61,695 nt of DNA from Escherichia coli (GTDB taxonomy: Bacteria > Pseudomonadota > Gammaproteobacteria > Enterobacterales > Enterobacteriaceae): the NCBI RefSeq assembly GCF_003334385.1, contig NZ_QOWN01000027.1. One strand, written 5' to 3'. A program made the translations under genes and the position numbers. Shown here one piece after another: positions 46,673-49,351 of this stretch. Each line of letters starts with the position of its first letter. Within the stretch, counting starts at the first letter, position 1. The notes beneath the pieces are model-generated. The model ran no database searches. It had not been told where the DNA came from and worked only from the letters and a program-made list of their open reading frames with translations.

Positions 46673-46692
46673 TAGCCTACACCTGTAAGAAA
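46673..46692. promoter_or_regulatory. Candidate EvgA box upstream of ydeP (CCTACAccTGTAAGAA)
   Basis: Imperfect inverted repeat about 245 bp upstream of ydeP; a near-identical motif lies upstream of safA. Confidence 0.5.
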
Positions 46693-46934
46693 ATCCGCGC
46701 ACAATTGAAGCCAGAGTCTTATTTTTTATATTGAAAAATATGTTAATTTAAACACTATGAGAGATGATGCTTAACTTATCGTATTTAATCTATTGTTTAA
46801 CGATAATAGATTAAAAATAGAAAGAGAGTAGTCCCCTACTCTTATATATCCATGTTGGCGATAATCCCTTTGTATGTACTGTGCATCATCGCTATTACAA
46901 ATCCTAATAATTCATTTCCACACAGGATAAGTAG

Positions 46935-49214
46935 ATGAAGAAAAAAATTGAATCCTACCAGGGTGCTGCAGGTGGTTGGGGTGCTGTTAAATCCGTAGCG
47001 AATGCAGTACGTAAGCAGATGGATATACGCCAGGATGTTATTGCCATGTTTGACATGAATAAGCCAGAGGGCTTTGACTGTCCGGGTTGTGCATGGCCAG
47101 ATCCTAAGCACAGTGCGTCATTCGACATTTGTGAAAACGGCGCAAAAGCAATCGCCTGGGAAGTCACGGATAAGCAGGTAAACGCCTCTTTCTTTGCTGA
47201 GAATACGGTTCAATCATTACTTACCTGGGGAGACCACGAGCTTGAGGCTGCGGGGCGACTCACTCAGCCTTTGAAATATGATGCCGTCAGCGACTGTTAC
47301 AAGCCATTAAGCTGGCAACAAGCTTTCGACGAAATTGGCGCACGCCTTCAAAGCTATAGTGATCCCAATCAGGTTGAATTCTATACTTCGGGCCGCACTT
47401 CCAATGAAGCTGCCTTTCTTTATCAGCTTTTTGCCCGTGAATACGGGAGCAATAACTTTCCCGACTGCTCCAACATGTGCCATGAACCGACAAGCGTGGG
47501 TTTGGCAGCGAGTATCGGTGTAGGTAAAGGGACCGTGTTGCTGGAAGACTTTGAGAAGTGCGATTTAGTCATTTGCATTGGGCATAACCCTGGTACAAAC
47601 CACCCTCGCATGCTGACTTCGTTGCGCGCTTTAGTGAAACGGGGAGCGAAAATGATCGCCATCAATCCTCTACAGGAACGTGGCCTGGAGCGATTTACCG
47701 CACCGCAAAACCCGTTTGAAATGCTGACGAACTCTGAGACTCAGTTGGCCAGTGCCTACTATAACGTGCGCATTGGTGGCGATATGGCGTTGCTCAAGGG
47801 GATGATGCGCCTGTTAATTGAGCGCGATGATGCTGCAAGCGCCGCAGGTCGGCCTTCATTGCTTGATGACGAGTTTATTCAAACGCATACCGTCGGCTTT
47901 GACGAGCTACGCCGTGACGTTCTCAATTCCGAGTGGAAAGATATCGAACGTATTTCTGGACTAAGTCAGACACAAATCGCCGAACTGGCTGACGCATATG
48001 CCGCTGCCGAACGCACCATTATCTGTTACGGAATGGGGATCACTCAGCACGAACATGGTACCCAGAACGTACAGCAACTGGTCAATCTGCTGTTGATGAA
48101 AGGTAACATTGGCAAGCCTGGTGCGGGTATCTGCCCACTACGTGGACACTCTAATGTACAGGGCGACCGAACCGTCGGTATCACCGAGAAACCGTCTGCA
48201 GAGTTTCTGGCTCGTCTGGGTGAGCGCTATGGCTTCACCCCACCTCATGCACCTGGACATGCTGCAATTGCCAGCATGCAAGCAATATGTACGGGGCAGG
48301 CTCGAGCATTGATCTGCATGGGGGGCAATTTTGCGCTGGCAATGCCAGATCGGGAAGCGAGCGCTGTACCGTTAACGCAATTAGATTTGGCGGTACACGT
48401 AGCCACTAAGCTTAACCGCTCTCATCTGTTGACCGCACGGCATAGCTATATTCTGCCGGTCCTGGGACGTAGCGAGATTGACATGCAAAAAAACGGTGCG
48501 CAGGCGGTAACCGTTGAGGATTCAATGTCGATGATTCATGCCTCGCGTGGCGTGTTAAAACCCGCCGGTGTAATGCTGAAATCAGAGTGTGCAGTGGTCG
48601 CGGGAATCGCGCAGGCAGCACTACCCCAGAGCGTGGTAGCCTGGGAGTATCTGGTGGAAGATTATGATCGCATTCGCAATGACATTGAAGCTGTGCTGCC
48701 AGAGTTCGCCGACTATAACCAGCGCATCCGTCATCCCGGTGGTTTTCACCTGATAAATGCAGCTGCTGAAAGGCGCTGGATGACGCCGTCAGGTAAGGCT
48801 AATTTCATTACCAGCAAAGGGCTGTTAGAAGATCCCTCTTCAGCGTTTAACAGTAAGCTGGTCATGGCGACAGTACGCAGCCACGATCAGTACAACACGA
48901 CGATTTATGGTATGGATGATCGCTATCGAGGGGTATTCGGTCAACGAGATGTGGTCTTTATGAGTGCTAAACAAGCTAAAATTTGCCGTGTAAAAAACGG
49001 CGAAAGAGTTAATCTTATTGCGCTTACGCCAGACGGTAAGCGCAGCTCACGCCGCATGGATAGATTAAAAGTGGTCATTTACCCTATGGCTGACCGCTCA
49101 CTGGTGACCTATTTTCCAGAATCGAATCACATGCTAACACTTGATAACCACGATCCATTAAGTGGCATTCCTGGCTATAAAAGTATTCCGGTTGAATTAG
49201 AACCATCAAATTAA
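46935..49214 (+). CDS. ydeP: Molybdopterin-dependent oxidoreductase, formate-dehydrogenase-like (759 aa), acid-resistance protein
   Basis: 759 aa, N-terminal Cys cluster (CPGC...C) of the MopB superfamily. Confidence 0.85.
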
Positions 49215-49329
49215 TGCCTCTTCTCATTTCTTCTGCTGTCATCCGCACAGCAGAAGAATTCCTCATTGACTATTACTTCGCAATTTGCTCACATGGATTA
49301 AATTAAACTACATACTATAAGATATAAAC

Positions 49330-49351
49330 TTCTGCCTACAGCTGTAAGAAA
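49330..49351. promoter_or_regulatory. Candidate EvgA box upstream of safA-ydeO (CCTACAgcTGTAAGAA)
   Basis: Same 16-bp motif as upstream of ydeP with a 1-nt spacer difference, about 115 bp upstream of safA. Confidence 0.5.

Follow-up and report, generated by a model that had tools for sequence, protein, structure and literature searches.

Paired EvgA-type operators head a shared promoter segment upstream of ydeP and safA-ydeO in Escherichia coli

The closest homologue of the EvgAS two-component system is BvgAS of Bordetella, and at BvgA-activated promoters such as fha a regulator of the NarL/FixJ type acts from a high-affinity inverted repeat located well upstream of a poor −35 element. EvgA itself reportedly recognizes the consensus TTCYTACA-NN-TGTARGAA, which is said to go back to Masuda and Church in 2003 and to Itou et al. 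in 2009. All genes known to be directly regulated by EvgA contain an EvgA site, and activated EvgA strongly induces the ydeP promoter (PMC4283999). The safA-ydeO operon has been described before (PMC5706723, PMC9496106) and is, like evgAS, confined to E. coli (PMC5706723); PMC9496106 has EvgA binding directly to its promoter, and PMC8174306, citing Itou 2009, gives ydeP as directly regulated by EvgA. Here, we analyzed a contig stretch of 61,695 bases from E. coli (NZ_QOWN01000027.1; hereafter the window), in which two nearly identical boxes precede ydeP and safA. The interpretation of these boxes as EvgA operators is already established for E. coli K-12; direct binding and EvgA-dependent induction are taken from the literature, whereas the motif, its specificity, its recurrence, its conservation and its promoter register were computed in this work.

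Based on the combined data, the two boxes are very probably the operators through which phosphorylated EvgA activates ydeP and safA-ydeO. The 16-mers CCTACAcCTGTAAGAA (46676–46691) and CCTACAgCTGTAAGAA (49335–49350), to which an earlier note on this DNA had drawn attention, are the only two matches in the window and read CCTACACCTGTAAGAA and CCTACAGCTGTAAGAA, respectively, on the plus strand. As that note had stated, they differ by one spacer base, namely base 7 (c/g), where the 2-bp spacer at the centre of an inverted repeat begins. Searching both strands of the window for CCTACANCTGTAAGAA with up to two mismatches yielded these two matches against 0.07 expected, an expectation derived from 100 dinucleotide-preserving shuffles, none of which contained two or more matches. 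The similarity that the note had seen to extend into the flanks is likewise real, with 23 of 25 positions identical over G-CCTACA-n-CTGTAAGAAA-n-TCCGC, and was understated, as it continues for about 85 nt past the 18-mer (see below).

Both boxes form the 18-bp inverted repeat TTCYTACA-NN-TGTARGAA expected of an EvgA operator. The ydeP operator (46674–46691, plus strand; AGCCTACA-CC-TGTAAGAA) corresponds to positions 1,586,747–1,586,730 on the minus strand of K-12 MG1655, and the safA-ydeO operator (49333–49350, plus strand; TGCCTACA-GC-TGTAAGAA) to positions 1,584,088–1,584,071, also on the minus strand. Compared with the consensus written as TTCYTACANNTGTARGAA, the ydeP 18-mer AGCCTACACCTGTAAGAA has two mismatches and the safA 18-mer TGCCTACAGCTGTAAGAA has one. 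Of the two halves of the ydeP operator, the one nearer the promoter fits perfectly, and the distal one deviates at its two outermost bases. The ATG of ydeP (46935) lies 243 nt past the end of the first box and the ATG of safA (49462) 111 nt past the end of the second one.

The gene order at the locus, following the annotation of matching E. coli genomes, is ydeQ, ydeP, safA, ydeO. The ydeP coding sequence (46935–49214, plus strand) encodes a putative oxidoreductase of 759 residues involved in acid resistance and is identical to that of MG1655, safA (49462–49659, plus strand) encodes a connector of 65 residues activating PhoQ, and ydeO (49734–50495, plus strand), co-transcribed with safA, encodes an AraC-type activator of gadE of 253 residues. 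A 3.4-kb stretch of the locus is matched in 5,390 of 5,426 complete E. coli genomes. The window and K-12 MG1655 agree at every base of the ydeQ-ydeP spacer, ydeP and safA; in the ydeP-safA spacer a single base differs (49276), at a distance of 57 nt upstream from the box. Because the locus matches MG1655 in this way, results obtained in K-12 apply directly to the window sequence.

We next searched for the motif elsewhere in K-12. Within 20 kb around evgAS, TTCYTACANNTGTARGAA was matched at only four places against 0.19 expected: one between emrK and evgA, one in front of frc that fits perfectly, and two in front of yfdX. The 15 kb around yegR contained a single match, upstream of yegR (0.10 expected). 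All matches in these 35 kb are intergenic, and the recurrence of the motif at emrK, frc, yfdX and yegR thereby served as a check of the consensus. A palindromic weight matrix was then built solely from the five sites outside the window, in line with the weight-matrix scan that the earlier note had proposed. Scanning the window with this matrix placed the two boxes first and second, with the safA box at 20.92 bits and the ydeP box at 18.15 bits, followed by a next-best score of 11.1 bits. For 100 Markov-simulated windows the best score averaged 12.6 bits with a maximum of 19.8, and the second-best score never exceeded 14.7. A third consensus match inside ydeO (50275–50292; TTCTTTTAGATGCAAGAA, three mismatches, 11.1 bits) was below the null maximum and was treated as a chance match, which it probably is. 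A literature search with the half-site sequence strings returned unrelated papers only.

Some points weigh against reading the boxes as EvgA operators. The matrix test is only partly independent, as the consensus was originally derived from a set that included both window sites. Moreover, one of the 100 random sequences reached 19.8 bits, so that a lone 18-bit match is not decisive, and the outer bases of the distal half-sites read AG at ydeP and TG at safA instead of TT.

We also assessed the conservation of the two boxes, for which both intergenic regions were aligned for the window and five further E. coli strains, with ydeP upstream regions 93–99% identical to the window, together with the divergent lineage L009, whose YdeP is 96% identical; the sample is thus small, comprising seven lineages. 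Among the six strains, the ydeP 18-mer varies at box position 2 and in the spacer (CC, CT, TC) and nowhere else, and the safA 18-mer at box position 1 (T or C) and in the spacer (GC, GT), while CCTACA and TGTAAGAA are unchanged in all six strains at both boxes. The corresponding boxes of L009 read ATCCTACG-CC-TGTAAGAA and CGCCTACA-GT-TGTAAGAA, with a single TACA-to-TACG change that is also present in the emrK site, and CCTAC and TGTAAGAA are kept. Across the seven lineages the half-sites are therefore conserved around a variable central spacer, and changes confined to spacer and outer distal positions are what a dimer contacting two half-sites would lead one to predict. On a larger scale, the 90-nt segments containing the boxes were found at an identity of at least 90% in 5,324 (ydeP) and 5,372 (safA) of the 5,426 complete E. 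coli genomes. At box position 2 of the ydeP operator (46675 in the window), the K-12 type has G, and the five other strains as well as L009 have T; G is hence the minority allele in this sample, and T is closer to the consensus TTCYTACA.

Both boxes are situated in promoter regions of genes reported to be induced by EvgS/EvgA (PMC8174306, PMC9496106, PMC4283999). Direct control of both transcription units by EvgA, as proposed in the earlier note, is thus supported by the motif, the matrix ranking, the recurrence at EvgA operons and the literature.

The resemblance of the two promoters does not end at the operators. Aligned in the register given by the offset between the boxes (2,659 nt), the two sequences are identical without gaps at 17 of the first 25, 27 of the first 40 and 52 of the first 85 positions (61%) after the 18-mer, whereas identity is 15–25% upstream of the box and falls to background (28%) past about +85. 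For comparison with the value of 52 in 85, 354 other registers gave 23.6 ± 4.1 matches with a maximum of 34, shuffling yielded a z-score of 7.4, and the local alignment score of the two segments, 50, compares with 18.8 ± 2.2 under the null. Over the same span, box-anchored alignments of other EvgA promoter pairs reach 19–41% identity. The shared segment, which we term a cassette, comprises the box and about 85 nt that take in the core promoter and the first part of the leader, and spans 46675–46776 at ydeP and 49334–49435 at safA, both on the plus strand. Comparison with L009 revealed the same boundary, as the ydeP cassette is identical to its ortholog at 75 of 85 positions (88%) inside and at 21 of 60 positions just upstream of the box, and the safA cassette at 67 of 85 (79%) and 20 of 60 positions, respectively; within L009 itself the ydeP and safA cassettes agree at 49 of 85 positions. 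The conserved and shared unit is about 100 nt long, and its upstream boundary coincides exactly with the 5′ edge of the operator.

This collinear similarity extends past the transcription factor site and is above that of other co-regulated promoters, which, on the simplest interpretation, suggests that the ydeP and safA promoters are paralogous copies of one cassette of about 100 bp. At the cassette edges we noticed no repeat or insertion sequence signature, and no intermediate state was present among the loci returned. The G+C content is about 50% for ydeP and 31–40% for safA-ydeO and its flanks (49400–50999), and because of this difference in composition the genes behind the two cassette copies probably have different histories. 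The low G+C content of 49400–50999 fits foreign, H-NS-prone DNA beside a ydeP of ordinary composition.

The similarity behind the boxes might instead reflect convergent constraint, whereby the same geometry of EvgA and RNA polymerase, perhaps together with shared regulators (YdeO feedback, PhoP, H-NS), would have shaped the about 85 nt without common descent while the boxes would still be EvgA operators. We consider this the less likely explanation, although several observations agree with it. Positions identical between the paralogs are better conserved between the orthologs at safA (46/52 versus 21/33, P = 0.013), with the same trend at ydeP (48/52 versus 27/33, P = 0.18), indicating that selection maintains much of the shared cassette sequence; however, purifying selection on inherited sequence would give the same pattern. 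Some in-register positions are also shared with other EvgA promoters, according to a preprint (10.64898/2026.05.06.723403) YdeO and PhoP act on the safA promoter, and the ydeQ-ydeP spacer is listed with H-NS (PMC3946193). Common regulation by EvgA does not bring the other promoter pairs near the identity seen here (binomial P = 1.4e-4 even with p = 0.41), and convergence accounts less readily for ungapped similarity over about 100 nt that begins exactly at the box edge, or for the TGAAGC and AGTCYTATTT blocks, which are absent from emrK, frc, yfdX and yegR.

Returning to paralogy of the two promoters, we also considered a broader scenario, which we put forward tentatively and rate as rather improbable in its entirety. 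In this scenario ydeP and safA-ydeO would have joined the EvgA regulon by duplication of the cassette of about 100 bp, EvgA promoters would be organized like BvgA promoters, with weak half-sites at about +3 and +25 bridging the box to the −35 region, and frc/yfdX, sharing CTCTCTGATT, would be a second case of local promoter copying. The adjacent K-12 frc and yfdX promoters (L001, 15,475–15,506 and 16,469–16,500) have this sequence at +23 to +32 and agree at 21 of the first 40 positions, making them a second neighboring pair of EvgA promoters with extra similarity.

Likewise, we compared the promoter architecture by reading six promoters in gene direction and anchored on their boxes (ydeP, safA, emrK, frc, proximal yfdX and yegR). 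C+9, A+10, T+26, C+27, a pyrimidine at +28 and T+31 are common to all six. Counting ydeP and safA as one, the resulting five promoters have five invariant columns out of 60, where random registers would give 0.47 (P = 2.5e-4), and the four promoters outside the window have nine against 1.4 expected. These in-register columns place both boxes at the same fixed distance and orientation to promoter positions as at other EvgA targets. Reading the emrK-evgA box towards evgA yielded no such register, consistent with an evgAS promoter that has been reported not to respond to acid (PMC4283999).

All four promoters outside the window exhibit TAnnnT at +54 to +59 (TAAATT, TATTCT, TATGAT and TATTAT), and ydeP and safA exhibit TAATTT and TATATT, respectively, at +53 to +58, one base nearer the box. 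Both hexamers are conserved in L009, where the −10 hexamer of the safA cassette is kept while +35 to +48 diverges. As TAnnnT is shared in register and conserved in L009, we favor TAATTT at 46744–46749 as the candidate −10 element of ydeP, with a predicted start near 46756, corresponding to about 1,586,665 in K-12, and TATATT at 49403–49408 as that of safA, with a predicted start near 49415, corresponding to about 1,584,006 in K-12, both hexamers being on the plus strand. This arrangement, deduced from sequence comparison, would correspond to a −10 element at +53 to +59, transcription starting about 65 nt after the box, a box centre near −73/−74 and a weak −35 element around +30 to +36.

Other placements speak against this assignment, as the −10 element could lie at +29, +36 or +53. 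A consensus scan favors TTGAAG-16-TATATT (46705–46732) for ydeP, which has been predicted independently (PMC3946193); its −10 hexamer reads TTTATT in L009, it has no counterpart at safA, and it would imply a start at about 46739. A −10 element at +29 to +34 (TATTTT/TATTTC), suggested by the conserved TCYTATT block, would imply starts at about 46732 and 49391, and was down-weighted, as the last T of the hexamer is missing in most promoters. Two conserved blocks, at +3 to +10 and +25 to +32, weakly resemble EvgA half-sites; their distances to the distal half-site of the primary box are 20 and 42 nt. Their signal is not significant (mean score negative, P = 0.06), and secondary EvgA half-sites at +3 and +25 are proposed as a hypothesis only.

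In the mechanism that best explains the data, EvgS senses mild acidity and phosphorylates EvgA, a response regulator of the NarL/FixJ type. An EvgA dimer would occupy the 18-bp inverted repeat with one subunit on each half-site (TTCYTACA and TGTARGAA) and the two central bases as a spacer, and from this fixed upstream position would help RNA polymerase to use a core promoter with a weak −35 element. YdeP then contributes to acid resistance directly, SafA activates PhoQ and YdeO switches on gadE. The boxes are the entry point of the EvgS/EvgA acid-resistance cascade, distributing one signal to YdeP, via SafA to PhoQ/PhoP, and via YdeO to GadE. The observations on the cassette and the register are incremental and in part inferential, and may bear on the way in which a two-component regulon restricted to one lineage takes in genes acquired by horizontal transfer.

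It is highly improbable that the boxes are the sites of a different regulator, from EvgA's own family or a similar one (NarL/NarP, RcsB/RcsAB, GadE or YdeO). Short TAC/GTA-rich inverted repeats are indeed typical targets of NarL/FixJ-type proteins, the half-site GTAAGAA/TTCCTA is similar to the halves of the RcsAB box, and GadE and YdeO are active in the same network. However, neither the NarL/NarP 7-2-7 operator (TACYYMT-NN-AKRRGTA) nor the RcsAB box, a 14-mer like TAAGAATATTCCTA, was matched over either box at up to three mismatches. In addition, the operons at which the motif recurs, namely emrK, frc, yfdX and yegR, are specifically those reported as EvgA-induced (PMC4283999, PMC3720670), and direct binding of EvgA is reported in the sources cited above.

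That the two 16-mers are a chance repeat or the remnant of a mobile or repetitive element without regulatory role, as might be argued from their position in AT-rich intergenic DNA and from their absence among the 20 families listed by a general repeat finder (seed 7, minimum 14), is effectively refuted by the statistics and the conservation pattern, since two matches far exceed the expectation, no further copies exist in the window, both boxes are in promoter-bearing intergenic regions of co-induced genes, and the half-sites, unlike the DNA directly upstream of them, have been kept in about 5,300 genomes as well as in a divergent lineage.

The distribution of the locus was assessed by a peptide-pattern search in one genome per species, which could have missed some ydeP genes. 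Two records contained an E. coli-type ydeP: L009, with both boxes, and L008 (JARKOR010000108.1). The latter is a 13-kb contig of a metagenome-assembled genome labelled Candidatus Nanosynbacter, with ydeP-safA, both boxes and 100% protein identity to the window, and almost certainly reflects E. coli sequence that contaminates the bin. This search, subject to the same limit of a pattern that may miss some, returned no further Escherichia species, in line with the confinement to E. coli given for evgAS and safA-ydeO in PMC5706723. The next relatives of YdeP were found in Edwardsiella (84–85% amino acid identity), Yersinia rohdei (67%), and Raoultella and Tatumella (56–57%). The core YTACANNTGTAR was absent from all non-Escherichia ydeP loci returned. 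The upstream region of the Edwardsiella anguillarum locus (L010) is GC-rich and devoid of a box, and the closest relatives outside the E. coli type (Edwardsiella L010, L011 and L013) have neither the EvgA core motif nor safA-ydeO. As the identity of Edwardsiella YdeP is far above that in the other genera returned, the protein comparison suggests horizontal transfer of ydeP between the E. coli and Edwardsiella lineages.

A strong hairpin (−17.5 kcal/mol, z = −4.67) is predicted at 49228–49258 on the plus strand, 14 nt past the stop codon of ydeP in the interval that separates the two transcription units. It is invariant in the six strains, lacks a U tract and was not called a terminator by the scan; it may act as a weak terminator, define an RNA or ydeP 3′ end, or permit read-through into safA-ydeO. 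Some papers name a ydeP-safA-ydeO operon (PMC11052181). A second, 8-bp hairpin of the type AGAGTAGt cccc aCTACTCT is located in the long ydeP leader at 46824–46843, some 90 nt ahead of the start codon; the six strains all have it unchanged, L009 has an altered version, and the scan flagged it as terminator-like on the minus strand. An Rfam scan of the ydeP and safA leaders detected no known RNA element.

Several other features of the window were recorded. At 45432–45487, two segments present in strain G6/7 and other close relatives are missing from the window: about 1.9 kb with a fragment of a helix-turn-helix gene, the ydeT fragment and the beginning of ydeS, and another 0.76 kb with the remainder of ydeS and most of ydeR. 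All that is left of ydeS is a 56-bp island, flanked by hipA and the 3′ end of ydeR. Since ydeR, as well as ydeS and ydeT, is present in MG1655, the window strain is not MG1655 despite its identical ydeP region. An intact open reading frame of 1,806 amino acids at 38003–43423 is annotated in relatives as an autotransporter of the ECSE_1600 family and is a frameshifted pseudogene in K194T1-1018. Rfam identified the Hfq-binding small RNA STnc560 at 13974–14186 (275.9 bits) and IS009 at 2383–2581 (226.8 bits). Near the end of pqqL and upstream of gadB, TACTTATACCGGAGTA at 60984–60999 matches the NarL/NarP 7-2-7 pattern with one mismatch; matches to this pattern are no commoner in the window overall than expected by chance.

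Among the known systems, the operators of NarL/NarP (7-2-7) and the RcsAB box resemble the ydeP and safA boxes: they, too, are short inverted repeats around a 2-bp centre, and the dimers that bind them come from the same protein family. They differ in sequence and in the orientation of the half-sites. BvgA promoters share with the EvgA promoters a regulator of the NarL/FixJ type and an inverted repeat upstream. The centre of the EvgA box would be similarly distal (about −74) if the −10 element lies at +53, the start being predicted, and the half-site-like blocks at +3 and +25 would be spaced by 20–22 bp from the primary site, as are BvgA dimers. In contrast to the BvgA promoters, the half-site sequence is a different one, the secondary half-site signal of EvgA is weak, and the geometry derives from a predicted start. 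Also close are the EvgA boxes of emrKY, yfdX, frc/yfdWUVE and yegR in K-12, which have the same 18-bp repeat, the better half-site on the promoter side, the same downstream register (C+9, A+10, T+26, C+27, T+31 and TAnnnT at about +54), and the same regulator and inducing signal (PMC4283999, PMC8174306, PMC3720670). Unlike these, the ydeP and safA boxes are degenerate at the distal outer bases, their −10 candidate is one base nearer the box, and the two promoters share a further 85 nt or so at an identity well above the range spanned by the other EvgA promoter pairs.

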